Shown here in pieces: positions 248 to 15,707 of a stretch of DNA of 43,404 bases (positions are counted from its first letter, which is position 1; every line of letters begins with the position of its first letter). This DNA comes from a virus (Duplodnaviria; Heunggongvirae; Uroviricota; Caudoviricetes): positions 1 through 43,404 of IMG/VR virus record IMGVR_UViG_3300012662_000013; one strand, 5' to 3'. A program made the translations under genes and the position numbers. The notes beneath the pieces were generated by a model that worked only from the letters and a program-made list of their open reading frames with translations, had not been told where the DNA came from and made no database searches.

Positions 248-919
248 GTGATTGAAATTGGTAAAACCTATAAATTTAAAGAAGAATTTTGTAGGGAACT
301 AGGTATTCCAAATTGTCAAGTGGAACGTAGATTAAATGATTTATTAGATTGGCTAAGTAGCTTCTATGATTTTGATTTCAAAAAAAGTCGTCCATTTCTT
401 ATTACAGTTAAAGAGATTATTGGTGAGTATAAACCCTTACCTCGTAAACTAACTAAAAGTAATGAACTTACTGAATAGAAGAAAAAAGATTATGCTGAAT
501 TTACTAAATTTTCTCTAACTCCTGACTATACACCTAATAGTAAATCTAAAGTAGCTCGTGAAGCTATGGCATAGTTTGGTAAAGAAAAATATGGTCATAT
601 TAATTAGAGATGGGTCATTCGTAATTTTGTTAAAGAACCATTTAATAAGTATGGAGAAACCAATGATGAAAGTGTATGGGTATATTATTCTACTTATAAG
701 CCTCTTGAACCTGAAGTATGTGAAAAATGGCGTAGTATTTTGAGAGAAGAACATATTGGTGAAGAAGAAGCCAGTAATGCATTCTATCGTCAAGCTGAAG
801 GATAGGATATTTCAAAAGAATTAGGCTATTTTAAAAAGGCAAGAGATAGATTTATGGAAAAGTATGATGATATTCCTATATTAGTTAAGGAATGGCGTCT
901 GAAGAAAGACGTTGAATAA
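248..919 (+). CDS. hypothetical protein, 223 aa under TAG=Gln (possible N-terminal helix-turn-helix)
   Basis: AGGAGG RBS then GTG. Frame has no TAA/TGA until 917-919. Four in-frame TAGs (476, 572, 605, 803) join the track fragments. Followed at once by a terminator. Confidence 0.8.
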
Positions 920-1271: not shown

Positions 1272-1300
1272 ATTATATCATATTTTTTTTAAAAAGTCAA
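1272..1300 (-). promoter_or_regulatory. sigmaA/70-type promoter with no downstream ORF
   Basis: TTGACT-17 bp-TATAAT with TGn extension. Confidence 0.65.
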
Positions 1301-1380
1301 ATTAGAGCATTTAAAAGAGTAAGTATAGGGGCTTGTCCCCTATACTTACGATTGATAGGCCGGCTTGCCCGGACTATCAT

Positions 1381-1776
1381 TTACCACCCCATCAGATCAA
1401 GAAACTTGTCAATGACTTCATCAGCAGAGCCAGTAAACTTATAGACCTTAGTCTTAGTCTTATCAGTAGGTTCCTTAACCGCCTTACCAAGGTCATCGAA
1501 GGCACGACCTACCTTACCAGCCACATCAAACACCTTCATCAGGTCTTCCGGTGCAACCTTAATGTCATAGCCGTAATAATCCTTTGCAAACTTAACTAGG
1601 CTCTGGCAGATAACCTCTGCATCAGCCTTCTTTACTTCTTCTCTCTTGGACTTTTCAGCCTGAGCCTTCAGTTCCTCATCTCTCTTGGTCTGTGCCTTAT
1701 TCAGTTCCTCAGTGATACTCTTAGCAATATCCTCTGCGGATTCACCCTTCATCAGACGATCATAAAAATCATACAT
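1381..1776 (-). CDS. hypothetical protein, 131 aa, charged/coiled-coil
   Basis: Intact ORF with AGAGG RBS and its own promoter. TAA stop. Confidence 0.85.
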   Translation of the reverse strand: MYDFYDRLMKGESAEDIAKSITEELNKAQTKRDEELKAQAEKSKREEVKKADAEVICQSLVKFAKDYYGYDIKVAPEDLMKVFDVAGKVGRAFDDLGKAVKEPTDKTKTKVYKFTGSADEVIDKFLDLMGW

Positions 1777-1828
1777 ATGTATACTACCTCTTTATAAAGA
1801 TTTCCAGAACTCTTTATTCTGTATATAT

Positions 1829-1857
1829 ATTATAACAAAAAATTTTTTGAAAAGCAA
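1829..1857 (-). promoter_or_regulatory. sigmaA-type promoter with A/T-tract spacer
   Basis: TTGCTT-TTCAAAAAATTTTTTGT-TATAAT. Confidence 0.7.
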
Positions 1858-1893
1858 ACTGGAAAAATTTTCCAGCTAATATTTTTTTTTATT

Positions 1894-1922
1894 ATTATAT
1901 AATATTTTTTTTAAAAAGTCAA
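1894..1922 (-). promoter_or_regulatory. sigmaA-type promoter (near-copy of 1272-1300)
   Basis: TTGACT-17 bp-TATAAT. Confidence 0.65.
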
Positions 1923-2084
1923 CTTTCGGGAAAATCAAGGGCCATATGAAAGTCCGCTAGATTGAGCAAAAAATTGCCATATAGGGTTTTGGAAGGAAAA
2001 ACCGGTCATCACCCTCAGTGACGACCGGGCAATTTTTACCATCTGTTCCAATTATTTCCTTGGAAAAATTTTCCAATTATGAAA

Positions 2085-2120
2085 CCAAAAATTGGAATGG
2101 GATTTTCTCCCATTCCAATT
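2085..2120 (-). terminator. intrinsic terminator
   Basis: 13-bp stem AATTGGAATGGGA/TCCCATTCCAATT overlapping the stop, followed by a U-run on the - strand. Confidence 0.75.
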
Positions 2121-2478
2121 ATTTCCTTGGACGTATCAGGGTCAATCGGTATTTAATTCCATTGTAAGCAAATTCCAATTCTCTCTCAGGATTTACCACT
2201 CGAATATCATTTACATCATAATCTACTCTGTGGGCGTCATCCAGTTTACTTTCAAAATATCTAATTAGATCACGCTTATCTTCATCCGGTTTGCGTTCCC
2301 GCTTGACACTTTCCACTTTCTTCCTATCAGCACGTCGTGCCTTTTTAGCACCTGCTTCAAGCTCCGGCGGCAATTCAAACAGTTTTTCGCCCCTATCAAT
2401 TCGCTTGTCCATTTCCAAAACTTGTTTGGCTTCTTCAATAGAGATTTTAAGCGAATTTGCCAATTTTTCAGCGTTCAC
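2119..2478 (-). CDS. hypothetical protein, 119 aa, paralog of 5080-5475
   Basis: GTG start with AAGGTGG RBS. Aligns by eye with 5080-5475 (D..IDR..K..F.L.PE; N.ER...F..NG..Y.LTLI..R). Confidence 0.85.
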   Translation of the reverse strand: MNAEKLANSLKISIEEAKQVLEMDKRIDRGEKLFELPPELEAGAKKARRADRKKVESVKRERKPDEDKRDLIRYFESKLDDAHRVDYDVNDIRVVNPERELEFAYNGIKYRLTLIRPRK

Positions 2479-2576
2479 AGTGTTCTTTCCACCTTTTTGA
2501 AATTTTGTTCCATAGAGCTAACTAGAGTTAGTTCTAGCTTAGAGGGGCGTTAAGCCCCTCTAGCCTTTTTCGGCGT

Positions 2577-2951
2577 TTATGCCTTGGTGTAATAAACACG
2601 CCGCTTTTCAGTGGTCTTAATCACCTTACCACTATCTACCAGAGTTTTCAGCAAGTTCGCCATTCTCTGCGTAGACATATCATTTTCATGCTTGGCATTG
2701 AAATCAGCCACAACCGGCAGTTCCTTGAGCAGTTCCGCAATAGAATAAGTCCGGTTCATTTCCATCTGCTGATAAATCTGTTCCACCATCTCCGCATTCT
2801 CCGCCTGCTGTTCGGTGGTTTTCTTGTCTGCGGACTTCTTAGAAACAGAAGCAAGCAGGGCTTCCAGCTTCTTCCGCACATCATCTGCAAGGACAATGTC
2901 AGTGTTGTTCAGAACGGTGTTCAGAGCCTGGGCGTAGGTAATCTTTTCCAT
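2577..2951 (-). CDS. putative winged-helix DNA-binding protein, 124 aa, paralog of 5524-5910
   Basis: AGAAAGGAATTGATA RBS. C-terminus STQRMANLLKTLVDSGKVIKTTEKRRVYY fits a wHTH recognition helix plus wing. Confidence 0.7.
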   Translation of the reverse strand: MEKITYAQALNTVLNNTDIVLADDVRKKLEALLASVSKKSADKKTTEQQAENAEMVEQIYQQMEMNRTYSIAELLKELPVVADFNAKHENDMSTQRMANLLKTLVDSGKVIKTTEKRRVYYTKA

Positions 2952-3022
2952 GGTATCAATTCCTTTCTAGCGGTAGGTCGCAACCCTTATTTGTTTTTGT
3001 GTTCCTCTCTTGGAACAATTAT

Positions 3023-3051
3023 ATTGTATCACAAATCTGCTGATTTGTCAA
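3023..3051 (-). promoter_or_regulatory. sigmaA-type early promoter
   Basis: TTGACA-17 bp-TACAAT with TGn extension. Confidence 0.75.
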
Positions 3052-3177
3052 TACCTTTTTAATTAAATTTGCCACGATTTTTTTTCGGCTTGACATTTTA
3101 TCGCGGGACGCTGGAAGTATTTGTAGAATCGGCAATTTCAATACCGTAGCTATGAAAATTTTGGAAGGGGTGGGGCT

Positions 3178-4080
3178 TTATTCCAAGCCCCAATCATTGT
3201 CATATCTTCCCAATTTCTTGAAGGGAAAATATTCAATACCTCTTTCAAACTTGTGCTTGGTCTTTGCACCAATCAGGGCAAACAGCATACTTTCAATAAT
3301 TGTATCTTCAAGGGCAGTATGTGCTTCTTCAAAATCTTCCTGCTGGAAACAATAGGCAAATGCTTTTTCTGCATTAGTCGGGTAATATCTTCCGCTTGCA
3401 GTATGCCAATCATTATTATAACACATCTGCTTATATTCAGGATTATTCAACAGGTGTTCACAAGACAGACCCCAAAGGTCAAACAGCGGATAACACTTGC
3501 TACGGAGGCGGAACACATCCGGTTCAAACTCTTTCTGCGAATAGGGCTTGCTTCCGCGGGCTAATGCGTCACATCTGTTATTCTGGTAGGCTTCCCATTC
3601 AAAAAAGTCCTGTGAATACAGCTTGGAAACATAAAGCTCTGTGAATGGAATCGCTTTCTTGAAGTCGAACATACTGTTATATGCTCCGACAGCTTCAACA
3701 GCGTCCAAATCTTCAACCAATTCAGCAATAGCCGTGTTCCAATCGGTTAAATGAATTTCTCCGGTTTTCAGACGCTCCAAATAAATCGGACGCTTACTTG
3801 CATAATATGCAGTATTGAAAACTGCGGGAACGCTGAAAATCTCAGAAATGAGATAAGACGCACGCTTATAGACCTTGCCCTTAATATCCACAATCTGCCA
3901 TCCCAAATCATAAATCAGGGGCTTAGCGATTGCGACATTCTTTTTCTGTTCTGCGGTAAATTTTGCCGCATACGGAAGTGTTGCCGTTTCACAATCCAGA
4001 ATCAGGTAATACTTACGACGCTTGTCTAACTTAATCATAGGGAAATCCATCCTTTTAATATAGTCAATAGGGCTTGCCAT
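3178..4080 (-). CDS. DEDDh (DnaQ-like) 3'-5' exonuclease, 300 aa
   Basis: ExoI LILDCET, ExoII AYNSMFD, ExoIII HTALED motifs. Confidence 0.85.
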   Translation of the reverse strand: MASPIDYIKRMDFPMIKLDKRRKYYLILDCETATLPYAAKFTAEQKKNVAIAKPLIYDLGWQIVDIKGKVYKRASYLISEIFSVPAVFNTAYYASKRPIYLERLKTGEIHLTDWNTAIAELVEDLDAVEAVGAYNSMFDFKKAIPFTELYVSKLYSQDFFEWEAYQNNRCDALARGSKPYSQKEFEPDVFRLRSKCYPLFDLWGLSCEHLLNNPEYKQMCYNNDWHTASGRYYPTNAEKAFAYCFQQEDFEEAHTALEDTIIESMLFALIGAKTKHKFERGIEYFPFKKLGRYDNDWGLE

Positions 4081-4101
4081 CGCTTCCCTTATTGCTCTTT
4101 C

Positions 4102-4130
4102 ATTATATCACACATCAGGCGATTTGTCAA
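4102..4130 (-). promoter_or_regulatory. consensus sigmaA early promoter
   Basis: TTGACA-17 bp-TATAAT with TGn extension. Confidence 0.85.
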
Positions 4131-4203
4131 GAGTTTTTTTTATTATTTGAAAATTTCTTTTTGATTGCCTTTCGTGTTTTGTCCTCTCTCTTGGAACAAT
4201 TAT

Positions 4204-4232
4204 AGTTTATCACATCTTGCCCAAAATGTCAA
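4204..4232 (-). promoter_or_regulatory. sigmaA-type promoter with no downstream start codon
   Basis: TTGACA-17 bp-TAAACT (TGn), followed by the conserved leader ATTGTTCCAAG. Confidence 0.55.
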
Positions 4233-4435
4233 GAAGAATATTTATTCATTTTCAATGAATATTTATGCACGCTTTAACACTTTAATGCACTAAAGTGGTG
4301 CCACTTTAGGGATTTATCACTTTAGTTAAATGAAGCAGGATTTTGCTGGAAAAATTGGTAAATACTGGAAAAAATGAAAATTCCTCGCGGCTGGGCCGTG
4401 GCCGCGAGGCTCAAATGTCAATAGTCAAAATGCAC

Positions 4436-4462
4436 AAAAATAAAAGGGGCATTTCTGCCCCT
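4436..4462 (-). terminator. intrinsic terminator overlapping a TAG stop
   Basis: AGGGGCA-GAAA-TGCCCCT followed by TTTATTTTT on the - strand. The AG of the TAG forms the stem base. Confidence 0.85.
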
Positions 4463-5024
4463 ATACATTCGCCATTACCAAATTGTAATTATTTTCAAAA
4501 ACTTGTAAATCTTCAACAGTCGGTTCAAAAGCCTCAAATCTGTCATTCGGGATATACTTATGAGACTTGCGGAAATAATTTCTCATCAGACTTTCCAGCA
4601 CCTGAGCCAAATCATCATTCGGCACTTGGTAAGATTTTACAACTTCTACATCAGAGATAACAACGCCATCCCTTTTGTATTCATGGTTAATAAAATCACG
4701 CATCCGCTTTACAACAATATTAGCTTTTCCAATTTTTGTAAAAACCCAATTGCCTACATCATCGAACATCTTAATCAGATAAGTGTTGCTAACTCCATCT
4801 TCTTTTGGACGCTTCTTAGTGATAAATTCACCAATGGCAAGAATTACCCTGTTTACTTTATCCAGAATATACTTTTTTGCCCAATCCTTACAGGCATTAA
4901 AAATTTCTTCACAGGCTTCAAACCAATGCAGCTTCCAACGTGCATTAGCATTGTCAAATCTTTCCTTTGCACCCTCAAAATCATTCGAGGAAACATAATC
5001 AGAATAAGTGGGATTTTTTGCCAT
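4461..5024 (-). CDS. putative GIY-YIG superfamily (T5orf172-like) nuclease-domain protein, 187 aa, ends in TAG
   Basis: AAGGTGA RBS supports ATG at 5024. Motif TYLIKMF...FTKIGKA..VVKRM...E resembles T5orf172/GIY-YIG. Confidence 0.6.
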   Translation of the reverse strand: MAKNPTYSDYVSSNDFEGAKERFDNANARWKLHWFEACEEIFNACKDWAKKYILDKVNRVILAIGEFITKKRPKEDGVSNTYLIKMFDDVGNWVFTKIGKANIVVKRMRDFINHEYKRDGVVISDVEVVKSYQVPNDDLAQVLESLMRNYFRKSHKYIPNDRFEAFEPTVEDLQVFENNYNLVMANV

Positions 5025-5079
5025 TTTTATCACCTTTTTCAATTTTTTTTGTAGAAAATGGGGAAAATTCCCCATTTTC

Positions 5080-5475
5080 TTATGCTTTTTTAGCTCTTTT
5101 CTGGATTAAAGTCAATTCGTAGCGATTTCCATTGCTTGTAAACATGATAGTTCGCTCTTTATTTGTGATTTCTTCATCCAGCACTTCAAATTCTGCCAAT
5201 TCTGTCAAAAATTTTGACAAACCGGCGATAATTTCGCCCTTTGTTGCATTAGGCTTACGCGGGCGGTAAACATTGCTTTTGACATTGTGCTCTTTGACAT
5301 TAGCCAATTTCATAGCTTGCTTATGTTCTTCTGGAGACAAATCAAAATCAACTTTCTGATTTCTGTCAATAGCTTTGTCAGCGTCCAGAATGTCAACAGC
5401 TTCATCGATTGAACATTCCAGCTTATCAACAAGATTATCGACTTTTGCCCATTCCTTTTCTGTCAGCTTTCTCAT
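5080..5475 (-). CDS. hypothetical protein, 131 aa, paralog of 2119-2478
   Basis: Intact ORF with GAAAGGA RBS. Similarity visible by eye. Confidence 0.85.
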   Translation of the reverse strand: MRKLTEKEWAKVDNLVDKLECSIDEAVDILDADKAIDRNQKVDFDLSPEEHKQAMKLANVKEHNVKSNVYRPRKPNATKGEIIAGLSKFLTELAEFEVLDEEITNKERTIMFTSNGNRYELTLIQKRAKKA

Positions 5476-5523
5476 AAATTTCCTTTCAATGAGTGGGGCG
5501 GATTTCTCCGCCCCCTTGGTTCA

Positions 5524-5910
5524 TCACGCCTTAGTGTAGAACACTCTACGCTTCTCCGTGGTCTTGACGACCCTGCCACTATCTACCAGCGGCTTAATCA
5601 GGCTTGCCATCTTCTGAGAAGAAAGTTCCGTCTCATGCTCTGCATTATATTCAGAGACAACAGGCAGTTCCTTCATCAGGTCTGCGATTGCATACTTGCG
5701 TTCAAACGCCATCTGCTCATAAATATGTTCAGTGTAAGCGGCGTTTTTCTCCTGTTCCTGAGACTGCTTCTTGTTTTCCTTCTTGTTGTCCAGCAGTTCA
5801 ATCTGGTGATTGATGAAGTCAATCAGAGATTCATCTGCGTCATGCTGGGCGAGGAAGTCAGAAACAGAGGTGAACATTTCCTTGCGGGTGGGAGCCTTAA
5901 TCTTATCCAT
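5524..5910 (-). CDS. putative winged-helix DNA-binding protein, 128 aa, paralog of 2577-2951
   Basis: AGAAAGGAATTGATA RBS places the start at 5910. Shares KELPVV and LVDSG(K/R)V(I/V)KTTEKRRV(Y/F)YTKA with its paralog. Confidence 0.7.
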   Translation of the reverse strand: MDKIKAPTRKEMFTSVSDFLAQHDADESLIDFINHQIELLDNKKENKKQSQEQEKNAAYTEHIYEQMAFERKYAIADLMKELPVVSEYNAEHETELSSQKMASLIKPLVDSGRVVKTTEKRRVFYTKA

Positions 5911-5960
5911 AGTATCAATTCCTTTCTGGTTTTTAAGTGTTTCCCTCACTTGTTGACTTA

Positions 5961-5989
5961 ATTATATCACATCAGGTGGGGTTTGTCAA
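5961..5989 (-). promoter_or_regulatory. consensus sigmaA early promoter
   Basis: TTGACA-17 bp-TATAAT with TGn extension. Confidence 0.85.
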
Positions 5990-6088
5990 GACTTTTTTTT
6001 ATTTTTTTTCAACCTTTTTTTCTTGACTTCCTTATGCACTCGACAGGGTTTTGTTGCAAGCTTTACCAGCCCCCTCCTGACATTATGT

Positions 6089-6117
6089 AGTATAGCACAT
6101 TTCAGGAATTTTGTCTA
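6089..6117 (-). promoter_or_regulatory. sigmaA-type promoter with no substantial ORF
   Basis: TAGACA-17 bp-TATACT with TGn extension. Confidence 0.5.
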
Positions 6118-6235
6118 TGGGCAAAATGCACAAAATTTGCATGAAAAAATTGTGCAATCTGCACAAAAATTAAAATGCCGCCCGGTGCGCAAGACATCGG
6201 GCGGCTCAAATGAACCGCCCATTTTTTAAGAATTT

Positions 6236-6532
6236 TCATTCCATGCCGCAGGCAATTTCTGTTAAATTTGCAACAGACCGGAAAATTTCAGATGCGTTCC
6301 AGTCATCATCCAGAAAACACCAACAACCGCAATACTCACCCATAATGTTAATAGGATAACAGACCCAATAGGGGAATGGGCAAAACCTCATATTCTTTTC
6401 TTCTGGAATAAACTGGTCAGGAAGGCTTCCGGGTCTATAACTATCAAGCTTAGACCCATCAGCTCCATAGAGTACATAACTAATGTTGTTGTCAGCAAGC
6501 CAAGCATACATAACAGATAAAAAGAAATTCAT
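6236..6532 (-). CDS. hypothetical protein, 98 aa
   Basis: ATGA overlap with the upstream gene. TGA stop. Confidence 0.75.
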   Translation of the reverse strand: MNFFLSVMYAWLADNNISYVLYGADGSKLDSYRPGSLPDQFIPEEKNMRFCPFPYWVCYPINIMGEYCGCWCFLDDDWNASEIFRSVANLTEIACGME

Positions 6533-6804
6533 GTGTTAAAATCCTTCTTCCCATCAAGAATCGCTTCAATTTCTGAAGTGGTCATGCGGCCTACTTTTTC
6601 TTCAATCTCGTGAAGGATATCTCCATCGTCTCCGCAGATTTCATCGGTGATGTTCAGCCATTCATCATAAATGTGAAGCAGGACAAAATCGCCTGATTCG
6701 ATTGTTGCACCACAACAGCCGCAGATAATTTCATCTCTGTCTTGATTCCAGATACCCGCCTGAACAGTTCCCTCATTGTCCATGAAAATAACCTGATAAT
6801 TCAT
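6529..6804 (-). CDS. hypothetical protein, 91 aa, Cys cluster (CGCCG)
   Basis: GAAAGGAAATGATA RBS and its own promoter. Confidence 0.8.
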   Translation of the reverse strand: MNYQVIFMDNEGTVQAGIWNQDRDEIICGCCGATIESGDFVLLHIYDEWLNITDEICGDDGDILHEIEEKVGRMTTSEIEAILDGKKDFNT

Positions 6805-6834
6805 TGTATCATTTCCTTTCCTTTTGATAAATCA

Positions 6835-6863
6835 ATTATACTACAGGTCAAAGGGCTTGTCAA
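6835..6863 (-). promoter_or_regulatory. consensus sigmaA early promoter
   Basis: TTGACA-17 bp-TATAAT. Confidence 0.8.
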
Positions 6864-7279
6864 GCCCTTTGATTAAATTTTACTCCAATATCCAAAATCT
6901 CTTTAAGGATTTCTTCATAATTGCGCCACTCGCCATAACGATATTCAGAGTCATAATACCACAGACCATAGCGCGAAACAATTCCATTTATAATTTTAAT
7001 GGGAACTTCATAGCCCATGTCATCAAAATAATCATTGATAAATTGTGCTTGGGCATAAGAATGAATTTCTACAGCTTCAATTTCATCGCATTGCGGATAA
7101 TTAAACCCCTCAATTTCCTTGCCCTCAAGGTCAAACAGTTTCAAAGGTTCGCAGTTTTCAGATTTACACAAATCTTCGTATCTGCATTTCCATTCATGAT
7201 GAAGACATTCTGCTTCATCGTCGAACACCTGCCCGCAGAAGTCGCATTCATAAGTAGTAATTTCAGTCATTATTATCAT
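6860..7279 (-). CDS. hypothetical protein, about 139 aa, N-terminal Zn-finger-like motif
   Basis: CDFC...ECLHHEWKC motif. GAAAGGAAATGATA RBS. Start could be 7270. Confidence 0.8.
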   Translation of the reverse strand: MIIMTEITTYECDFCGQVFDDEAECLHHEWKCRYEDLCKSENCEPLKLFDLEGKEIEGFNYPQCDEIEAVEIHSYAQAQFINDYFDDMGYEVPIKIINGIVSRYGLWYYDSEYRYGEWRNYEEILKEILDIGVKFNQRA

Positions 7280-7301
7280 TTCCTTTCCTTTTGGTACTAT
7301 T

Positions 7302-7330
7302 ATTATATCAAATTTTTTTTAATTTGTCAA
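7302..7330 (-). promoter_or_regulatory. consensus sigmaA early promoter, abutted by a 12-bp GC stem (7331-7372)
   Basis: TTGACA-17 bp-TATAAT with TGn extension. Stem GCCGGTTGGGAA/TTCCCAACCGGC. Confidence 0.85.
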
Positions 7331-7378
7331 GCCGGTTGGGAATTTTTTTTTATAATTTTTTTCCCAACCGGCGGTCGC

Positions 7379-7690
7379 TTAAATGTAAATAATTCCCTGA
7401 CCAGCAGCAGGCGGATTCGTACTGTCTACAGTGATTTCTGTTTCCGCGTCCTGCCCTTCTTCATCTTCATATTCAACATGGAAAGTCAAATCTCCAACAT
7501 TATCCAGATAAGCCTGAATTGCTTTTCTGATTCCATCCATGTATTTTTCTTCTTTCTCTTGGTCAAGTTTGTTAATACGCTTCTTTGCAAGGTCAATCAG
7601 GGTCTGCAATTCTTCCGGAGTCTTTTTATTCACATAATCGTGCAAATCCTGCAAATTCATTGCTTCGACGATAGCACTTTCCATATACAT
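7379..7690 (-). CDS. hypothetical protein, 103 aa
   Basis: AGAAAGGAATTGATA RBS places the start at 7690. Confidence 0.8.
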   Translation of the reverse strand: MYMESAIVEAMNLQDLHDYVNKKTPEELQTLIDLAKKRINKLDQEKEEKYMDGIRKAIQAYLDNVGDLTFHVEYEDEEGQDAETEITVDSTNPPAAGQGIIYI

Positions 7691-7735
7691 TTTTATCAAT
7701 TCCTTTCTTTTATGGTAGGCTGTTAAGCCTACCAT

Positions 7736-8149
7736 TTATTTCATAATCGGGCACGTGTTCATTCCATTGTCTTTCATCCAGTGAATAAAATCTTCGGCGG
7801 AAAGTTCTTCCGAAAGTCTCTTGAAACTCAAATCATAATCAAGCGGATTGTAAATTGTTTCACGTGAAACAGGGAAGCTAATTTTTTCGGGCTTGTAATC
7901 TTCGCCTTTCCAATATCTTATATTTTCAAGATGGAATTTTTTGATTCTATTGTTGAAAATGCCGCGTTTGATAGAACCATTGACATAGTGGCGGCTGATA
8001 GCTACCGCGAAGTCTGTTGCATCTTTGATTGTCATTGTTTCACGATCAGGCGGTTCAGGGCAATAGACAAGCTGAGTAGACCAATTCAGAATAGGCTCTT
8101 GACCATCATTCATTTTCATATAAATGCGTTTCCAATACAGATTCTTCAT
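7736..8149 (-). CDS. hypothetical protein, 137 aa
   Basis: GAAAGGAAATGATA RBS and an upstream promoter. Confidence 0.8.
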   Translation of the reverse strand: MKNLYWKRIYMKMNDGQEPILNWSTQLVYCPEPPDRETMTIKDATDFAVAISRHYVNGSIKRGIFNNRIKKFHLENIRYWKGEDYKPEKISFPVSRETIYNPLDYDLSFKRLSEELSAEDFIHWMKDNGMNTCPIMK

Positions 8150-8196
8150 AATATATCATTTCCTTTCATTTGGTTATTCTCTCTTGGAACAATTAT

Positions 8197-8225
8197 AGTA
8201 TAACTGATTCCGGGAGAAAAGTCAA
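8197..8225 (-). promoter_or_regulatory. sigmaA early promoter
   Basis: TTGACT-17 bp-TATACT, followed by the conserved leader. Confidence 0.75.
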
Positions 8226-8350
8226 CTGTCATTTTGCACAAAAATTTGGGCAAAAATTTGTGCAAAGTGCTAAAAATCTTAAATTCTGGCTGTGACGCAC
8301 GATCACAGCCAGCTCAAATGTTTTTCCATCTAATTCCAATAGGAAGGAAG

Positions 8351-8383
8351 AAAATGGGAATCCAAATTCTGGATTCCCATTTT
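8351..8383 (-). terminator. intrinsic terminator
   Basis: AAAATGGGAATCCA/TGGATTCCCATTTT stem just after the 8387 stop. Confidence 0.75.
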
Positions 8384-8386
8384 TTT

Positions 8387-8635
8387 TCAAATCGAAAGAC
8401 ATTCATTTCCAGCCATTGTTTCAATATAGGAAATTTCTTCATAATCAACGTTAGCTTTATCAAGTGCCGCTTCCACAGCATCTTGAAAATCCCATGATTC
8501 ATCCTCAAACCAATCATCTTGTGCTTCGGTTGTTTCCTCAGCATTTCCATAATCTTCCATGGGTTTCCATTTATCATCTACTTCTACTTCTACAGGAACG
8601 ACTGTCTGAACACGAACATACGCAATAAATTTCAT
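8387..8635 (-). CDS. acidic hypothetical protein, 82 aa
   Basis: GAAAGGA RBS. Very D/E-rich. TGA stop. Confidence 0.8.
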   Translation of the reverse strand: MKFIAYVRVQTVVPVEVEVDDKWKPMEDYGNAEETTEAQDDWFEDESWDFQDAVEAALDKANVDYEEISYIETMAGNECLSI

Positions 8636-8654
8636 TTTTTACCAATCCTTTCTT

Positions 8655-8726
8655 TTAACCCAATGCAATCAAAATTCTAATGTCTGTTGCTTCTTCAAGC
8701 AAAATTTCAAGTTGTTCATCATTCAT
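8655..8726 (-). CDS. 23-aa small ORF MNDEQLEILLEEATDIRILIALG
   Basis: AAAGGAG RBS. Exactly fills the gap between its neighbours. Confidence 0.55.
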   Translation of the reverse strand: MNDEQLEILLEEATDIRILIALG

Positions 8727-8770
8727 TACTTATTTCTCCTTTTTTATCAGGGGACTTTTGTCCCCTGATT

Positions 8771-9244
8771 TTATTCCAGCCCGTTCAGAATTTCTTTCAA
8801 TACTTCAAGAATGTTTGTTGTAGTCGGGTCAATCGCCCCGCCCAAGTCCCAATCACGCCGTACTCTTGCGTCATCATCAAAAATCAGGGCTTCTTCATCT
8901 GCGGCAAGTCTTGCGGCTTCAACCTTATGTTTCGGCGTTCCATAAGCTACGCACCGCAGACTGTCGAATGGAAAACCATATGATTTCAGCCAAGCACGTT
9001 TTGCTTTTCTTACTTCATCATCATACTGTTTGTTCGGCTCTTTAGAAAGCCAAGTGATAACAGCAACGTTAATTCCGCAATTCTGGAGACTACGAAGCAG
9101 ACACCCAAGTTCTGCCATATCTACAAGCGGTTCGGCGGTCTGATAGGGTGTAGGGTCATATGCTCTAAGCATTTCCAACCAGTTAGGAACATTGTATAAG
9201 TCAACCAGAGTTCCATCAAGATCGAAGCAAATTTCCTTAATCAT
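8771..9244 (-). CDS. HAD-superfamily phosphatase, probable 5'(3')-deoxyribonucleotidase, 157 aa
   Basis: Motif I FDLDGTLVD, motif II ITW, motif III K, motif IV IFDDD. Confidence 0.8.
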   Translation of the reverse strand: MIKEICFDLDGTLVDLYNVPNWLEMLRAYDPTPYQTAEPLVDMAELGCLLRSLQNCGINVAVITWLSKEPNKQYDDEVRKAKRAWLKSYGFPFDSLRCVAYGTPKHKVEAARLAADEEALIFDDDARVRRDWDLGGAIDPTTTNILEVLKEILNGLE

Positions 9245-9277
9245 TTTATCATTTCCTTTCTCTTTTGGAGTATCTTT

Positions 9278-9306
9278 ATTATAGCAGGTTCAGCCGGATT
9301 TGTCAA
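9278..9306 (-). promoter_or_regulatory. consensus sigmaA early promoter
   Basis: TTGACA-17 bp-TATAAT with TGn extension. Confidence 0.85.
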
Positions 9307-9314
9307 GTGTTTTT

Positions 9315-9698
9315 TCAAACTAATTTGATATTTTTATAATTTTCAATCACGCGGGCACTTGCGAATGGCATAATTGACATATCCTTTGCTTTAGGGTCTA
9401 CACTGATTTGGATATTTTTTCCAAGAGCATAGGCGTATCCGATTTCCCAAGCTGTTCCAGAATCAGAATACAAACCATCATACACAGCAAAAACCATGTC
9501 GCAGTCTTGAATTGCCGCGATATCCATTTTGAAAACTTCACGTGCCCAATTTTCCTGCGACATATCCCAAGCATTCGGGATTGTATGTTCTTGCGGCACA
9601 TATACATCATACCCAAGCCGGCGGAAACCAGCCACATATGAATCAATTCTTTCTTTAGTCTCAGGGCGGAAGAAAGCACCAGCCATATAAATCTTCAT
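9315..9698 (-). CDS. nucleoside 2-deoxyribosyltransferase-like (NDT / N-glycosidase fold) protein, 127 aa
   Basis: KIYMAGAFF, VYVPQ, D..AI..CD.V.A and DSGTAWEIGYAYALGK motifs. Confidence 0.8.
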   Translation of the reverse strand: MKIYMAGAFFRPETKERIDSYVAGFRRLGYDVYVPQEHTIPNAWDMSQENWAREVFKMDIAAIQDCDMVFAVYDGLYSDSGTAWEIGYAYALGKNIQISVDPKAKDMSIMPFASARVIENYKNIKLV

Positions 9699-9733
9699 TC
9701 CACATTTTCCTTTTCTTTTGGATAGAGGGGATT

Positions 9734-9931
9734 TCAAAATCCCCTCTTGATTTTCTCAAATGCGGGATAGAATCTATCTTCCCACATATCCATCAAATCT
9801 TGGTCGTTAGTTCGCTGGATTTCCCAGACAAGAGCCCCATATGCGTTATGCTCATACAGCTCAGCCTGCTCAGGGTACTCTCGTGCCCACTCCATCTGCT
9901 GATTGATAAACGACACAATTGTATTTTCCAT
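9734..9931 (-). CDS. hypothetical protein, 65 aa
   Basis: AAAGGGG RBS and an upstream promoter. The stop lies inside a hairpin. Confidence 0.75.
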   Translation of the reverse strand: MENTIVSFINQQMEWAREYPEQAELYEHNAYGALVWEIQRTNDQDLMDMWEDRFYPAFEKIKRGF

Positions 9932-9960
9932 TTTGTATTCCCCTTTCCTTTTGTACCCTT

Positions 9961-9989
9961 ATTATAGCACGGGGCATACCAGAAGTCAA
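9961..9989 (-). promoter_or_regulatory. consensus sigmaA early promoter
   Basis: TTGACT-17 bp-TATAAT with TGn extension. Confidence 0.85.
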
Positions 9990-10169
9990 GCATAAAATAT
10001 TCGTCAAATTGCACAAAGATTTTGGGAAAAATTTCCAAGAGCTAGATTGGTAGATTTTGGAAAACTTTTTTACGTTAGCACTTTAATTGGCTAAATTCCG
10101 GCCGCATGGGGCGTGTGCGGCCGGACCGAATGCTTTCCCAGATTATGGGACTGTTAAAATTTGCCGCAT

Positions 10170-10198
10170 TTGACTTTTCAACTGGAAAATTATAGAAT
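10170..10198 (+). promoter_or_regulatory. + strand sigmaA-like promoter, antisense to the early genes
   Basis: TTGACT-17 bp-TAGAAT. Confidence 0.5.
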
Positions 10199-10235
10199 TA
10201 AAATAGAAATAAAAAATTATTTTTTTTATATAAAA

Positions 10236-10264
10236 ATTATATTATTTTTTTTTATAATTTTCAA
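10236..10264 (-). promoter_or_regulatory. sigmaA-like promoter converging on 10170-10198
   Basis: TTGAAA-17 bp-TATAAT. Confidence 0.45.
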
Positions 10265-10268
10265 ATAA

Positions 10269-10296
10269 GATTTCCTCCCAAAATATTGGGAGGAAA
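10269..10296 (-). terminator. terminator-like hairpin
   Basis: ATTTCCTCCCAA/TTGGGAGGAAAT stem after the 10309 stop. Confidence 0.6.
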
Positions 10297-10308
10297 TTCA
10301 AATCATTT

Positions 10309-10524
10309 CTAAAATTTATCGTGTGGAATTTCGGGATAGTCAAGAATTTTTGCGACAAATTCATTATACTTATCGACTATCATATATTTTTCTTCAAGGC
10401 GTTTTTTAATATAATACTCAGCTTCTGAGCGACACGAAGCATCTACAAAAAACACTCGTGGCCAATTTTCCTCAGCAGGATTAAGATTGATTACTAGATA
10501 TTTCCAAGTTGGATAACCTTTCAC
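10309..10524 (-). CDS. hypothetical protein, 71 aa, ends TAG-AAA-TGA
   Basis: AAGGAG RBS 8 nt before GTG at 10524. Confidence 0.75.
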   Translation of the reverse strand: MKGYPTWKYLVINLNPAEENWPRVFFVDASCRSEAEYYIKKRLEEKYMIVDKYNEFVAKILDYPEIPHDKF

Positions 10525-10526
10525 AT

Positions 10527-10763
10527 TTACCACTCCTTAACATTTAATGTAGCTTCTACGGTGTAAACTTTTGTATCATCGGGGAAACAATCAAATTCTC
10601 CGGTAGCTAAATCAATAGCATTGATTTCATCGCCTTCATTGTCAAGAGATTCTGTTTTCATGTGAATTGTATCTGTTCTAGGGTCACGGAATACTGTTCC
10701 AATGTCAAGGGAAGCAAAATGCACAAACACTTTTTTCTGGCTGTACTCAATTTTCATTTTCAT
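10527..10763 (-). CDS. hypothetical protein, 78 aa
   Basis: Own GAAAGGA RBS. In frame with the upstream gene across a TAG. Confidence 0.8.
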   Translation of the reverse strand: MKMKIEYSQKKVFVHFASLDIGTVFRDPRTDTIHMKTESLDNEGDEINAIDLATGEFDCFPDDTKVYTVEATLNVKEW

Positions 10764-10772
10764 TTTTCCTTT

Positions 10773-11084
10773 CTATTTTCTAACTAGCCTTTTGGCAATA
10801 TTCTTTTGAATTGTATTATATAGGGCTTTCGGCATCTGCATTTGCCCGTTGGCTCTAAAAATGGCAGTTGCTTTATCAAGGTTGACATAGTATAATGTGA
10901 TTAGAAATTTCATTTCAATATCTGTAATTAAAATCACTCCTGTGTCTGTAAGGATTTGCCATTTACCTTGATATTTGAATTGAGCCACCGGATTACCTAT
11001 GCCGGTATTCATTTGAATTTGAACATATCTGTCTAAGCGGTCATTCTTGATATGCTTGCTAACTTGCAATTTTGTAATATCCAT
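10773..11084 (-). CDS. hypothetical protein, 103 aa, ends in TAG
   Basis: AAAAGGAGG RBS. The H..R..R...ITLY pattern loosely resembles RelE/BECR-type RNases (weak). Confidence 0.8.
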   Translation of the reverse strand: MDITKLQVSKHIKNDRLDRYVQIQMNTGIGNPVAQFKYQGKWQILTDTGVILITDIEMKFLITLYYVNLDKATAIFRANGQMQMPKALYNTIQKNIAKRLVRK

Positions 11085-11114
11085 TCTAATTTCCTCCTTT
11101 TGGAAGAGGGCTCT

Positions 11115-11300
11115 TCAGCCCTCGTTCCTATCATCTTCAATCCAACGATTAAGGAACTGTTCACAAGTTTCTTCTGGATTATCAATAGCTGAATCTTGAC
11201 AAGCCATTTGAAAAGGGCAGACATCGCAAGAGGAACGACTGAGCATATCAATCAGCATTTCCTTATCAAGGACATATTTTGCAAATTCAGACATTTTCAT
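11115..11300 (-). CDS. Cys-rich hypothetical protein, 61 aa
   Basis: AGGAGG RBS. C..CPF..AC...C motif. Confidence 0.7.
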   Translation of the reverse strand: MKMSEFAKYVLDKEMLIDMLSRSSCDVCPFQMACQDSAIDNPEETCEQFLNRWIEDDRNEG

Positions 11301-11313
11301 TTTTATTTCCTCC

Positions 11314-11454
11314 TTAGTCAATATAAGTGGACGTTAAGCAAATCCATTCGCGGTTCTGGTACTTGGGGCTTCTCTCCCTAGCGTCTGCTAGGGAGTAGCC
11401 ATATGCAATTTCAGTTTCATTCGTGTTGACGTTGAACATCTCGAATTCCCACAT
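11314..11454 (-). CDS. hypothetical protein, 46 aa
   Basis: GAGGAGG RBS before ATG at 11454. Confidence 0.65.
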   Translation of the reverse strand: MWEFEMFNVNTNETEIAYGYSLADARERSPKYQNREWICLTSTYID

Positions 11455-11458
11455 AATG

Positions 11459-11620
11459 TCAACCCTCCTCGATGCAACCGCAGACTGCGTACCACAGACC
11501 CATATACTCATCATAGTTGCGGGCATATGTGTTGCAGAAGTTGTTCATGCTCTCAGCACTGAAATCATGGTCATTGTCAATCCATTTGCTCAACAGTTCG
11601 GCGATTTTTTCCATTGTCAT
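11459..11620 (-). CDS. hypothetical protein, 53 aa
   Basis: GAGG RBS before ATG at 11620. First gene after the promoter. Confidence 0.65.
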   Translation of the reverse strand: MTMEKIAELLSKWIDNDHDFSAESMNNFCNTYARNYDEYMGLWYAVCGCIEEG

Positions 11621-11669
11621 TTTTTGTATCCTCGTTTCATTTTTATTTCGTTCCCCTTGGAACAATTAT

Positions 11670-11698
11670 ATTCTAGCATACCCTATAGCAAATGTCAA
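11670..11698 (-). promoter_or_regulatory. sigmaA early promoter
   Basis: TTGACA-17 bp-TAGAAT with TGn extension, followed by the conserved leader. Confidence 0.8.
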
Positions 11699-12011
11699 TA
11701 GGAAAGTCAAATTTTTTTATTCGTCAATATGCACAAAGATTTTGGTAATATTTGGTATGGAAATATATACCATAAGTGGTAGATTATGGGAAATGGAACA
11801 TAATGTCAAATATGGAAGAATTTGGCTGGAAATATGTGGAAATGGTATTAAATGGAAAATGCGGGGCGTGGCGAGCCTGCTGTGGATATAGCAATTTCGC
11901 CACGCCCCGCCCAGGCAAATTCATTTGATTAAAGTGATGATGAAGTAAAGAAGATGATTTGAAAAGTGGGCTGGAAACTGTTTCCAATTTCCAGCCCTTG
12001 GGATTTCAGGA

Positions 12012-12335
12012 TTAAATCGCCTGATGTGCCAGATTCTGCCATTCATAGATGATGTTCTGGCCTACTTCATTTGCAATTTCTCTAGCCTGACGTCTGGTGT
12101 AGGCGTGTTTTGTGCTACTGATGTAATATTTTCCATTTTTGAATTGAATATTGCAACCACCATCTAAAGTATTAAGCATTTTCACTGCAAAGATTGCCAT
12201 TTCAGGAATATCAACATCATAAGTTTTTACATTCACCTGAAAACCGCCCTTGTACTTTTTGATTTTCCCATTCTTGATGTTCAGGGTATCGCCGTCCTGC
12301 ATTTTCTTGATAGTTCTTACGTTAATCATTTTCAA
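12012..12335 (-). CDS. hypothetical protein, about 105-107 aa
   Basis: GAAAGGA RBS. Start is TTG 12335 or ATG 12329. Confidence 0.75.
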   Translation of the reverse strand: MKMINVRTIKKMQDGDTLNIKNGKIKKYKGGFQVNVKTYDVDIPEMAIFAVKMLNTLDGGCNIQFKNGKYYISSTKHAYTRRQAREIANEVGQNIIYEWQNLAHQAI

Positions 12336-12372
12336 TATTTCCTTTCTGATTTTTAATTTGGTTTGTTGTTTT

Positions 12373-12397
12373 ATGAGAGGGCTTTCCGCCCTCTCAT
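12373..12397 (-). terminator. terminator-like hairpin
   Basis: ATGAGAGGGC/GCCCTCTCAT stem with a GNRA-like loop, directly after the 12399 stop. Confidence 0.65.
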
Positions 12398-12398
12398 T

Positions 12399-12551
12399 TT
12401 ACTCGTCCATCATGACGAAGAAATTCCAGCTTGAATACTCAGGTCTGCCGTCAGCAGGGTTATTGTGGCGGACCACCTGACAGAATGAAATAGAAATCCA
12501 GAGCATAATAATAATTCCGGATAGGGTCAGTGCTAGTTTGATATTTTTCAT
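12399..12551 (-). CDS. small membrane protein, 50 aa (absent from the ORF track)
   Basis: CGAAAGGA RBS. MKNIKLALTLSGIIIMLWISISFC... has one hydrophobic helix. Confidence 0.65.
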   Translation of the reverse strand: MKNIKLALTLSGIIIMLWISISFCQVVRHNNPADGRPEYSSWNFFVMMDE

Positions 12552-12620
12552 TTCAAATTTTTCCTTTCGACTTTTGGATTCAGGTGCTCGATTGTGCAGT
12601 TTGAAAGCGGTAGAAGGACC

Positions 12621-12923
12621 TTAGAGGTCCTTCACTACTAGCGTCAGATGGTCGGCAGTATGTTCGATTGCCTGCACCACCTGATATGTTGTAAAATGAT
12701 AAGTAGTCAGTAGACCAGAAGTAAAGACCGCAGACCTACTGCCGAAGCCCACGATTTCAAGCTCTTGCATAATATAGAGCTTTTCTTCCAATTCGCGATA
12801 AAAGGCGTTCTGCCAAGGGCAGTTGAATGTGCAGGGCAAATGCCATTTGCAATATTCAGTCTGAACATTGTTTTTGTCCAGAAAGCGGATTTCAACATAG
12901 GGATTGAGATTGTTAAGTTCCAT
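12621..12923 (-). CDS. hypothetical protein, 100 aa
   Basis: AGAAAGGA RBS. TAA stop. Confidence 0.75.
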   Translation of the reverse strand: MELNNLNPYVEIRFLDKNNVQTEYCKWHLPCTFNCPWQNAFYRELEEKLYIMQELEIVGFGSRSAVFTSGLLTTYHFTTYQVVQAIEHTADHLTLVVKDL

Positions 12924-12957
12924 ATTATTCCATCCTTTCTATTGGAAGCCAAGGGTT

Positions 12958-13146
12958 TTAACCCTTGGCTCTATAGGTCTCAGTGCCATTAGAATACTGT
13001 GCCATGACTTCGCCGGTTTCCATGTCAATGACATCACGTTCGTTCCGTGCCCACAGGCTGTAGGCTCGTGCCATGTGCCGTGCCGCACTCAGGCTCTTGT
13101 AAAGAATGCCATACTTGCCAGTGCTCAGATTATAGATTTTGTACAT
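12958..13146 (-). CDS. hypothetical protein, 62 aa
   Basis: GAAAGGAG RBS. The stop lies inside the hairpin GCCAAGGG/CCCTTGGC. Confidence 0.75.
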   Translation of the reverse strand: MYKIYNLSTGKYGILYKSLSAARHMARAYSLWARNERDVIDMETGEVMAQYSNGTETYRAKG

Positions 13147-13176
13147 GATGTTGCTCCTTTCCTGTATCTGGTTGGC

Positions 13177-13515
13177 TTAGTCAGCCAACCAGATATTGCG
13201 ACTATTTGCGATACACCAGCCGCGGCAATTCTTAGACAGCCGCTCGATATCCTCAGCCAGATACATAGAATAGCCATAGGCATCAGTCAGCTTTTTCACC
13301 TTACCCTGAATGCTGTTGGTAAGCAGGCTATAGTACCTAGCCCAGTAGATAGTATAGCTAGCCTCAGCGATCTGCTGAGCAAGGTATTCACGCTGAGCGT
13401 TTATCTCTTTACGCTTGGGGTCGGAATAACCCAGTTCCTTAGTGGCACTGTTCAGACGCACAATAGTCTTCTGCATGGCGTTCAGGCGAGCACTTCTTCT
13501 GTTGATACGATTCAT
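13177..13515 (-). CDS. basic hypothetical protein, 112 aa
   Basis: AGGAGG RBS. Confidence 0.8.
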   Translation of the reverse strand: MNRINRRSARLNAMQKTIVRLNSATKELGYSDPKRKEINAQREYLAQQIAEASYTIYWARYYSLLTNSIQGKVKKLTDAYGYSMYLAEDIERLSKNCRGWCIANSRNIWLAD

Positions 13516-13560
13516 AATAATCCTCCTAATAAATGTTAGTTGGTTGGTAGGTGAAGAAGC

Positions 13561-13965
13561 TTATGCTTCTTCACCATATAACAGAGTGTACAGGTTGTCA
13601 AAGAAGTCCTCAAGCATATGCTCAAAGACATCTGCCCATTCTTCGGCCTCATCCTGCAAGTCTCTCAGTCTCTGGTAGATTGCATCATATTCGGGGCACG
13701 GACAGCCGGTTTCCATGTCCATATTGTAGTCTGTGTGTTCAAGGTCATATTCTGCACTGTCAATAGCCCATGTCAGACTATCCCATGCGTCAATGTTCTG
13801 TGCCGCATAACAATGGTATTCTTCTACCATATGCTCCCAGTCGAAGCTATCGCCAAGCATATGGTACTGCTTGACATATGTCAAGATATCTTCTGCCTGC
13901 TCTACGAGTTCTTCTTTGATTGCCTTTTCCTTGGTTTCCTTGCTAGTGATTATTGTATGTACCAT
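13561..13965 (-). CDS. acidic hypothetical protein, 134 aa; first gene of the early arm
   Basis: AAAAGGA RBS. Strongly D/E-rich. Confidence 0.8.
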   Translation of the reverse strand: MVHTIITSKETKEKAIKEELVEQAEDILTYVKQYHMLGDSFDWEHMVEEYHCYAAQNIDAWDSLTWAIDSAEYDLEHTDYNMDMETGCPCPEYDAIYQRLRDLQDEAEEWADVFEHMLEDFFDNLYTLLYGEEA

Positions 13966-13984
13966 ATTGTACCAATCCTTTTCA

Positions 13985-14220
13985 TATTATTTGACTGTTA
14001 GTTGTCAACTGTCCGTGAGTCTATGTGCCGTAGGCGTTGGACTGCCCTACAGCTTGCACCGCACTTTCCATGTTCTACCATTACGTCCGCTATGCGGTGC
14101 AGACGTTCGGCTTAAATCCAGTTTTCAAGGTTCAGGCGGTTCGGTGCTATCCGCGTCATGCCGGTCATTTTACTACACTGCCAAGGACTTGCGTGGTTTG
14201 TTGTTGTCCTCTTGACATTT
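13985..14220 (-). ncRNA. candidate structured 5' leader or ncRNA containing a boxA-like element
   Basis: About 235 nt of GC-rich, ORF-free sequence between promoter and first gene. Several hairpins, plus CCTTGAAAACT. Confidence 0.4.
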
Positions 14221-14223
14221 TGA

Positions 14224-14252
14224 ATTGTACCACACTTTGCTTTGTTTGTCAA
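14224..14252 (-). promoter_or_regulatory. sigmaA promoter heading the early arm
   Basis: TTGACA-17 bp-TACAAT with TGn extension. Confidence 0.8.
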
Positions 14253-14327
14253 GCGTTTTTTTCAAGTTTTTTTTGAAAACTTTCTTGACTGTTTTTCGTT
14301 GTTCCATGGGGTCAATTTCTGATTATG

Positions 14328-14355
14328 ATTATAGCAGATTGCAAGGAAAAGTCAA
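14328..14355 (-). promoter_or_regulatory. upstream tandem sigmaA promoter
   Basis: TTGACT-16 bp-TATAAT with TGn extension. Confidence 0.65.
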
Positions 14356-14448
14356 TACTAAAAAATGGAAAATCAATAAATTTTTTAGATTTTTTTTCGG
14401 GGCTTGTTTTTGCCAGATCCTACCAATTTTCTTGGAGGGTGCGAACGT

Positions 14449-14509
14449 ACTTTACCTCTTTACTCAGATGAAGAAAGACTATAGACTTTACCTCTTTAAT
14501 CAAATGAAG
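14449..14509. repeat. direct repeat pair, 36-bp period
   Basis: ACTTTACCTCTTT...ATGAAG at 14449 and 14485. Confidence 0.75.
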
Positions 14510-14578
14510 TTGGAAGAAACTGGGGGGGGTGCGTTTCGGGCTGGATTTTTTTGGGAATGGAAGAAAATGGTTTTCCTG

Positions 14579-14700
14579 GAAAATTAATTTCTAAACTTAT
14601 TTTTAATTTCAGAATACGGAATTAATTTCTAAAACCTTTTTCAAATTCAAAACACGGAAATAATTCCTAAACTCAATTTTAATTTTAGAAAACGGAAATA
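14579..14700. repeat. three imperfect tandem repeats of about 38 bp
   Basis: Unit approximately GAA(T/A)TAATT(T/C)CTAAA...TTT.AA.TT.A.AA.ACG, three copies. Confidence 0.7.
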
Positions 14701-14730
14701 AAAAAATAGGCGAGAATTTAATTCTCGCCT
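14701..14730 (-). terminator. intrinsic terminator
   Basis: AGGCGAGAAT/ATTCTCGCCT stem followed by a U-run on the - strand. Confidence 0.8.
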
Positions 14731-14960
14731 TAATCATCTTTAATTACTCGATAACCATTCTATTCCAATGTCTCTTTTGCAAGAGCTACAGCATCGCTTG
14801 CTTCAGGGCATTCGATGCACAAAAAAGTCTTTCCATCTACTTCATCAATATAAAATTCATAATTATGACCATTTACCATATGTAGTTCATCACGAAGCTT
14901 AGAAGGAATCATTAAACGTCCAACTGTATCGAGTTTTCTCGTATATGCTGTCTTAAGCAT
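14730..14960 (-). CDS. AbrB/SpoVT/MazE-family DNA-binding protein, 76 aa with TAG=Gln (66 aa if TAG stops)
   Basis: RKLDTVGRLMIPSKLRDEL motif. AGAAAGGAG RBS. Read-through gives ...LEQNGYRVIKDD-TAA, abutting the terminator. Confidence 0.75.
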
Positions 14961-15020
14961 TCTACTCACTCCTTTCTATGTCTGGGAGAGTATGAGCCAT
15001 CCCTTGATTTTTTATAATTT

Positions 15021-15049
15021 ATTTTACAAAATTTTTTGTCCTTTGTCAA
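15021..15049 (-). promoter_or_regulatory. sigmaA-type promoter for the AbrB-like gene
   Basis: TTGACA-17 bp (contains AAAAAATTTT)-TAAAAT. Confidence 0.6.
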
Positions 15050-15078
15050 AATTTTTCTTAACAAAATCTTAACAATAA

Positions 15079-15516: not shown

Positions 15517-15551
15517 TAAATCACTTCCTTTAATTTTCAAATATAATATAT

Positions 15552-15707
15552 TTACTTTTTCTTGGAGTCTTTAGTGGGATTATAAGCTCCTTGCTGTTTA
15601 GGATTTTCACCCCACATAATTTGATAAACTGCTCTAGTAGCACTATTAGTTGTTCTACGTTTAGCTTTAGAAGCCATGGCTCCAAAAATACCACGAGGTT
15701 TACGCAT
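15552..15707 (-). CDS. small basic protein, 51 aa (MRKPRGIFGAMASKAKRR...), not the frame shown in the track
   Basis: AAAGGAG RBS, ATG at 15707, TAA at 15552, directly downstream of a promoter. Confidence 0.7.
   Translation of the reverse strand: MRKPRGIFGAMASKAKRRTTNSATRAVYQIMWGENPKQQGAYNPTKDSKKK

Follow-up and report, generated by a model that had tools for sequence, protein, structure and literature searches.

Recoded phages have been proposed to start in the code of their host and then to switch (Ivanova et al., 2014; Borges et al., bioRxiv 10.1101/2021.08.26.457843; Peters et al., PMC9523058). In the Mgcod study, early blocks were termed "dual-coded" and differences between gene ends were annotated as isoforms; its authors, who worked mostly on crAss-like contigs, favour a soft switch (Pfennig et al., bioRxiv 10.1101/2022.06.29.495998). 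Here, we analysed a stretch of viral DNA (hereafter, the window) comprising the first 43,404 bases of the single linear, 107,404-base IMG/VR virus contig IMGVR_UViG_3300012662_000013 (57% complete according to CheckV). The contig derives from a gut phage with a genome of roughly 190 kb, in which TAG specifies an amino acid. Within the window, a block of small genes was distinguished on the minus strand, which contain no in-frame TAG and three of which end in TAG. This block is probably the early region of a TAG-recoded phage, with early genes kept in the standard code and TAG acquiring a sense meaning later. The scenario of the original prediction for this DNA, i.e., a start in the host code followed by a switch, is an already published model, and the pattern found here fits it.

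The contig is composed of three arms: (i) small genes on the minus strand (1.3-15.7 kb), (ii) virion genes on the plus strand (15.7-59.7 kb), very rich in TAG, and (iii) replication genes on the minus strand (59.7-107.4 kb), with moderate TAG use. Its coverage by greedily called open reading frames (ORFs) rises from 63 to 93% once TAG is read as sense, and the gain falls outside the early block, within which the standard-code coverage is already high. One example is the virion ORF 33014-42724 (plus strand), encoding 3,236 residues with 115 in-frame TAG codons. The main elements of the window are the following:

1381..13965, minus strand: early-block core, some 28 small genes grouped into roughly 12 short operons, without in-frame TAG and with a guanine plus cytosine content at third codon positions (GC3) of about 0.40
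15079..15707, minus strand: pair of genes free of TAG yet AT-rich, downstream of a promoter of perfect consensus (15765-15737)
15676..43404, plus strand: TAG-rich virion-gene module, contrasting with the early block
248..919, plus strand: gene of no assigned function (223 residues) with four sense TAG codons, at the downstream edge of the block
14730..14969, minus strand: gene for an AbrB/MraZ-like regulator; sense TAG at 14760-14762, own promoter at 15049-15021 and terminator at 14730-14708

The minus strand is tiled by standard-code ORFs at 1381-13965 and 15079-15707 (30-31 genes in all). Most block genes carry ribosome-binding sites of the AAAGGA/GGAGG (Firmicutes) type, and the gaps between them contain promoter-like and terminator-like sites. 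The proposal that about 30 early genes are intact in the standard code, without internal TAG, held well: no in-frame TAG occurs in 3,377 codons (30 genes counted), in which glutamine is specified by 36 CAA and 78 CAG codons. Late genes contain 305 TAG in 13,998 codons (21.8 per 1000) and replication genes 102 in 13,857 (7.4 per 1000); at these rates 74 and 25 TAG codons, respectively, would be expected in the block, and the probability of finding none is 1e-32 and 2e-11. Standard-code ORFs exclude TAG by definition, and hence a test independent of ORF calling was applied, in which the block proteins were searched by tblastn against 43 related loci, collected via their exonuclease gene (48-85% identity). 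Not a single TAG was present in 29,277 aligned codons, and the alignments were interrupted only by TGA/TAA codons ahead of the exonuclease start proper and by those of a gapped stretch in one locus. The same search revealed in-frame TAG in the flanking virion genes of the relatives. A family-wide TAG count on greedy code-15 ORFs was discarded, since antisense ORFs contaminated it, and was replaced by counts from homolog-based alignments and strand-restricted ORFs.

The three TAG-terminated genes and the elements adjoining them are:

4461..5075, minus strand: T5orf172/GIY-YIG-like gene ending in TAG (4461-4463); likely true start ATG at 5024, giving 187 residues
4445..4462, minus strand: intrinsic-terminator hairpin overlapping this TAG stop, followed by a T-run
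10309..10533, minus strand: gene of 74 residues ending ...HDKF-TAG-AAA-TGA, with the TAG at 10309-10311
10297-10270, minus strand: conserved 12-bp terminator hairpin after this gene
10773..11084, minus strand: gene of 103 residues ending in TAG (10773-10775)
10527..10763, minus strand: separate gene of 78 residues with its own ribosome-binding site, matching whole PHROG families of 72-79 residues

As had been noticed originally, each of these TAG codons is followed by a terminator, a backup stop or a new ribosome-binding site. In the T5orf172-like gene, TAG directly precedes the hairpin AGGGGCAGAAATGCCCCT and its T-run, and no further in-frame stop occurs until the TGA at 4425-4427, past that run. 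Alignment of 23 homologs placed the end of the family at the same residue (...ANA/ANV); in those homologs that continue past it, the tail starts with glutamine and is then unrelated in length and sequence. Such tails are artefacts of code-15 gene calls, reading through TAG into the intergenic terminator. Database proteins bearing them are P0001, P0003, P0004, P0007, P0012, P0035 and P0043. The TAG stop of this gene was seen on DNA in eight homologs (their loci include L086, L087 and L089-L092) and was inferred in seven more, to about 44-51% identity, and five more distant homologs stop at TAA or TGA. The TAG-keeping homologs differ from one another at nearby synonymous sites and in what lies downstream, and in most of them a terminator hairpin comes next, with no in-frame stop before the T-run. 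If the T-run precedes any in-frame stop, suppression of TAG would give extended or non-stop products. The unusually persistent retention of TAG in this gene may reflect selection or inheritance. When the alignment of the T5orf172-like proteins was used to scan viral contigs, five loci only were retrieved.

Orthologs of the 10309-10533 gene in three relatives (L002, L003 and L006) end in ...H(Y/D)KF-TAA at the same codon, and the same hairpin follows. After the TAG of the third gene come AAAGGAAAA and, eight bases past the TAG, the start codon ATG of the gene 10527-10763; read-through of this TAG would produce an in-frame fusion of 185 residues with that gene. In the same three relatives, the homolog of 10773-11084 terminates at a TAA five codons further on and the gene after it uses another frame, while in more distant relatives the homologs of the two genes lie kilobases apart. 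Since the two are in different frames or unlinked in relatives and the PHROG matches cover the whole length, 10773-11084 and 10527-10763 are separate genes. Homologs were also inspected for an extension with glutamine past the three TAG codons, and none continues with conserved sequence. At the level of gene ends, TAG thus marks the genuine termini of early-block genes, and in the flanks and in the late genes it is a sense codon; what is conserved is the code-11 ends, the code-15 tails being junk.

Across the family, the GC3-rich block ORFs stop at TAA (715), TGA (346) and TAG (145 of 1,206). The next TAA or TGA is found at a median of 21 codons after TAG ends versus 17-17.5 codons after TAA or TGA ends, a similarity that real ends would be expected to show. 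The terminal TAG codons could be read differently, as tolerated "don't-care" codons secured by later stops rather than working terminators, under a soft switch or constant suppression, with TAG partly decoded throughout infection and avoided in early genes as suppression is initially inefficient. A soft switch is the view taken in the Mgcod study, and it would agree with the TGA backup one codon past the 10309 TAG, with a TAG-TAA tandem in the T5orf172-like homolog P0020 and with the failure to find a phage release factor. We nevertheless consider it unlikely, since (i) read-through of the terminated 4461 transcript would meet no stop, (ii) read-through at 10773 would join proteins that are separate, or even unlinked, in relatives, and (iii) the frequency of TAG stops is about what the block composition predicts.

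The two flanking genes had been proposed to need TAG as sense, and this is upheld because the homologs of one are full-length and the tail after TAG is kept in the other. The gene 248-919 has 90 full-length homologs (217-226 residues), and at the columns of its TAG codons (residues 77, 109, 120 and 186) the homologs have mostly glutamine (Q) or glutamate (E); in 78 homologs E is about as frequent as Q (E 31/Q 26; E 48/Q 23). In the AbrB-like gene, TAG lies ten codons ahead of TAA. A 95%-identical copy in G001, a complete relative of 188,474 bp with terminal repeats and an internal block (73-89 kb), keeps both TAG and the tail, and the AbrB-like homolog adjoins the block there. More distant homologs run past the TAG position, and two hold TAG inside the DNA-binding domain. 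AbrB-like homologs are encoded at loci L005, L077 and L082, and those of other phages have TAG elsewhere within the domain. This regulator can be completed only when TAG is decoded, and is in that sense TAG-gated.

Near-consensus sigma-A promoters, proposed earlier as a mark of the early arm, are indeed concentrated there. With a criterion of at least 11 of 12 matches to TTGACA-N16-18-TATAAT, applied to both strands of the whole 107-kb contig, 26 promoters were identified. Fifteen, among which are six of the seven perfect matches, are located on the minus strand at 1,272-15,765 (binomial P = 1e-11), and 10 of these 15 have an extended -10 TG:

1272..15765, minus strand: 15 near-consensus sigma-A promoters, with first hexamers at 15765, 15049, 14355, 14252, 11698, 10264, 9989, 9306, 7330, 6863, 5989, 4130, 3051, 1922 and 1300

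Terminator-like hairpins are about three times as numerous as expected from shuffled sequences (34 sites vs. 11.8). The promoter at 1272-1300 (minus strand; TTGACT-17-TATAAT with TG) is situated just past the terminator of the last block gene and aims antisense into the plus-strand gene 248-919, with no convincing ORF downstream.

Taken with the absence of TAG, these promoter types suggest that TAG would be a stop early and glutamine later. The block would be the region transcribed first by the host RNA polymerase, resembling a host-takeover region. It is divided into about a dozen short operons; a near-perfect sigma-A promoter precedes each of these, and an intrinsic terminator closes many. 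Its genes would be readable by an unmodified host ribosome, with TAG as an ordinary stop in three of them. The block would be expressed first, with host release factor 1 (RF1) ending its TAG-terminated genes, and TAG would become sense later. As tRNA(CUA) accumulates, the virion genes and many other TAG-containing genes would be completed. After the switch, the 10309 product would gain two residues, the 4461 product would gain 12 residues or its transcript would lack a stop (the next one lies past the T-run), and 10773 would yield the 185-residue fusion.

The block also differs in composition. Its GC content is 0.35-0.46 vs. 0.27-0.33 elsewhere, and the shift is almost wholly synonymous: GC3 is 0.40 in the block and 0.18 elsewhere, whereas the GC content at second positions (GC2) is 0.32 in all gene classes. 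CTG accounts for 34% of leucine codons in the block and 1-2% elsewhere, TTA for 10 and 56-66%, respectively, and CAG constitutes 68% of CAA + CAG in the block compared with 18-20% elsewhere. This GC contrast and the layout recur in relatives with exonucleases 48-85% identical. The original prediction equated the GC shift with a code boundary. The shift is real, but the match is rough: TAG avoidance occurs also in AT-rich genes (15079-15707 and among the replication genes), and the TAG-containing AbrB-like gene is interleaved between TAG-free genes of the same strand. A few GC-richer, CAG-preferring genes with few or no TAG codons are also present outside the block (23683-25613, 29612-30709 and contig positions 105995-107377), and they include probable high-copy virion proteins. 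In G001, about 27 kb more of minus-strand genes (41-68 kb), AT-rich and mostly compatible with the standard code, lie downstream of the block, in a part beyond the start of the contig analysed here; because of them, the TAG-poor part of the genome is much larger than the GC-rich block.

A difference of this size (in GC3 and in CTG use) might indicate that the block is a mosaic accessory region, exchanged repeatedly with higher-GC standard-code phages and TAG-free by ancestry rather than by timing, a view to which its paralogous cassettes and its highly variable gene content (most genes have homologs in just 1-10 of the 43 relatives) would also lend weight. We regard this as very unlikely. Relatives down to 48% identity show this contrast at the corresponding place in the genome, which points to a maintained, not a recent, feature; the conserved core genes (exonuclease and HAD phosphatase) share the composition of the block; the concentration of promoters marks a functional class; and TAG avoidance extends to AT-rich genes. 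Joining of the GC-rich 14 kb from another genome during assembly, to which the abruptness of the compositional break could be attributed, is extremely improbable, as dozens of independent contigs contain the same junctions, flanked on either side by AT-rich genes that use TAG; one of them is the complete 188-kb genome with terminal repeats, where the AbrB-like homolog also stands beside the block.

A host-like codon dialect as the source of the block codon usage is half supported. The rpsL-operon genes of metagenome-assembled genomes (MAGs) holding related phage contigs (mostly Clostridia) prefer CAG, AAG and ATC, like the block, but show no CTG or CCG preference; binning is unreliable, and these MAGs may not represent the host of the phage. 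No description of the GC3 split was found in the literature compared on code-15 gut phages. Its size within one genome (0.40 vs. 0.18) goes beyond the published model and merits a family-wide study.

A tRNA(CUA) gene is present in G001 (2466-2540), near tRNA-Gln(UUG), and in a more distant complete relative (G005). Comparison of the suppressor tRNA with phage tRNA-Gln and tRNA-Glu gave no clear parentage. It has G73 and an unpaired 1:72, which we take to be glutamine-like features. Glutamine is the favoured reading of TAG, although the E and Q counts in the 248-919 family do not separate it from glutamate.

Several observations weigh against an early standard-code region followed by a switch. 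No tRNA genes were detected on the window or the whole contig, 57% complete as it is, with ARAGORN at default settings or Rfam RF00005, and relaxed ARAGORN settings gave noise only. In G001, the suppressor tRNA is located in AT-rich, TAG-using DNA, and a promoter scan of that region returned weak matches only, uninformative on timing. Neither a release factor (PF00472) nor a glutaminyl-tRNA synthetase-type enzyme (PF00749) was found on the contig or in three complete relatives; the ORF with 115 TAG codons requires near-complete suppression at each codon, which counts against the switch when no release-factor gene is found. Neutralisation of RF1 could reside among the unnamed early genes. The AbrB-like gene, with its sense TAG, is on the early strand, inside the early arm and behind an 11/12 sigma-A-like promoter, and the proposed timing of block expression follows from promoter consensus only. 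Finally, the backup stops at 10309 (TAG-AAA-TGA) and in P0020 belong on the same side: since such stops make read-through often harmless, TAG ends are no proof of termination at TAG.

For most block proteins, Pfam and PHROGs searches provided no name. Those block genes to which a putative function could be assigned are:

3178..4080, minus strand: DEDD-type exonuclease-like gene, present in 43 of 43 relatives, never with TAG
8771..9244, minus strand: HAD-type deoxyribonucleotidase-like gene, present in 41 of 43 relatives
9315..9737, minus strand: nucleoside 2-deoxyribosyltransferase-family gene (PF05014, E = 3e-23)

The true start of the exonuclease-like gene is probably Met14, because in relatives the ORF 3178-4080 is interrupted at codons 6 and 9, by TGA and TAA. 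The block also contains a paralogous two-gene cassette on the minus strand (2119-2951 and 5080-5949), whose gene pairs are 50 and 37% identical.

As judged from the exonuclease, the closest phages in GenBank are the Enterococcus SPO1-like ones and Phass-1 (26-29% identity). Related contigs were binned mostly with Clostridia MAGs, and the lineage is outside the crAss-like and Lak phages. The host is probably a gut member of the Clostridia. In Bacillus phage SPO1, the host-takeover module comprises some 24 small genes, organised in about 12 operons whose early sigma-A promoters are strong. The block described here resembles that module, as far as architecture is compared, in the dense consensus sigma-A promoters and terminators driving small unnamed genes of a large Firmicutes-type phage; unlike an SPO1-type module, it is internal in G001 (73-89 of 188 kb) and not in or by the terminal repeat. 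The Phass-1 group (PMC10607447) likewise comprises large gut phages; many of their ORFs contain TAG, they carry suppressor tRNA genes, and their exonuclease is a distant homolog (26%).

The findings have practical consequences. Applying code 15 over a whole contig leads to spurious C-terminal tails on early proteins, and the three early genes ending in TAG, for each of which a short and a long product can be predicted, together with one TAG-gated regulator, constitute compact test cases for a switch. The TAG retention in the T5orf172-like gene and the TAG-gated AbrB-like regulator go beyond the published model. It is doubtful that the early-block TAG terminators are selected rather than neutral, with the code switch altering or shutting off what certain early genes produce; if they were, then, with the TAG-gated regulator and the GC3 split, one genome would hold two translational regimes with TAG-dependent on/off switches.

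The phage shares with the code-15 gut phages of Ivanova, Borges and Peters a sense TAG concentrated in virion genes and early genes without in-frame TAG; a phage tRNA(CUA), a further trait of that group, was seen in the complete relatives G001 and G005. Its early block differs sharply from the rest of its genome in synonymous codon use. As in the "dual-coded" blocks of Mgcod, the early genes translate almost identically under codes 11 and 15, and the three TAG-ended genes fit this description exactly; beyond Mgcod, the comparison of homologs shows that the conserved ends are the code-11 ends. The locus is therefore a clean and well-delimited case of the published model, from a lineage outside the crAss-like and Lak groups that mostly underlie it.

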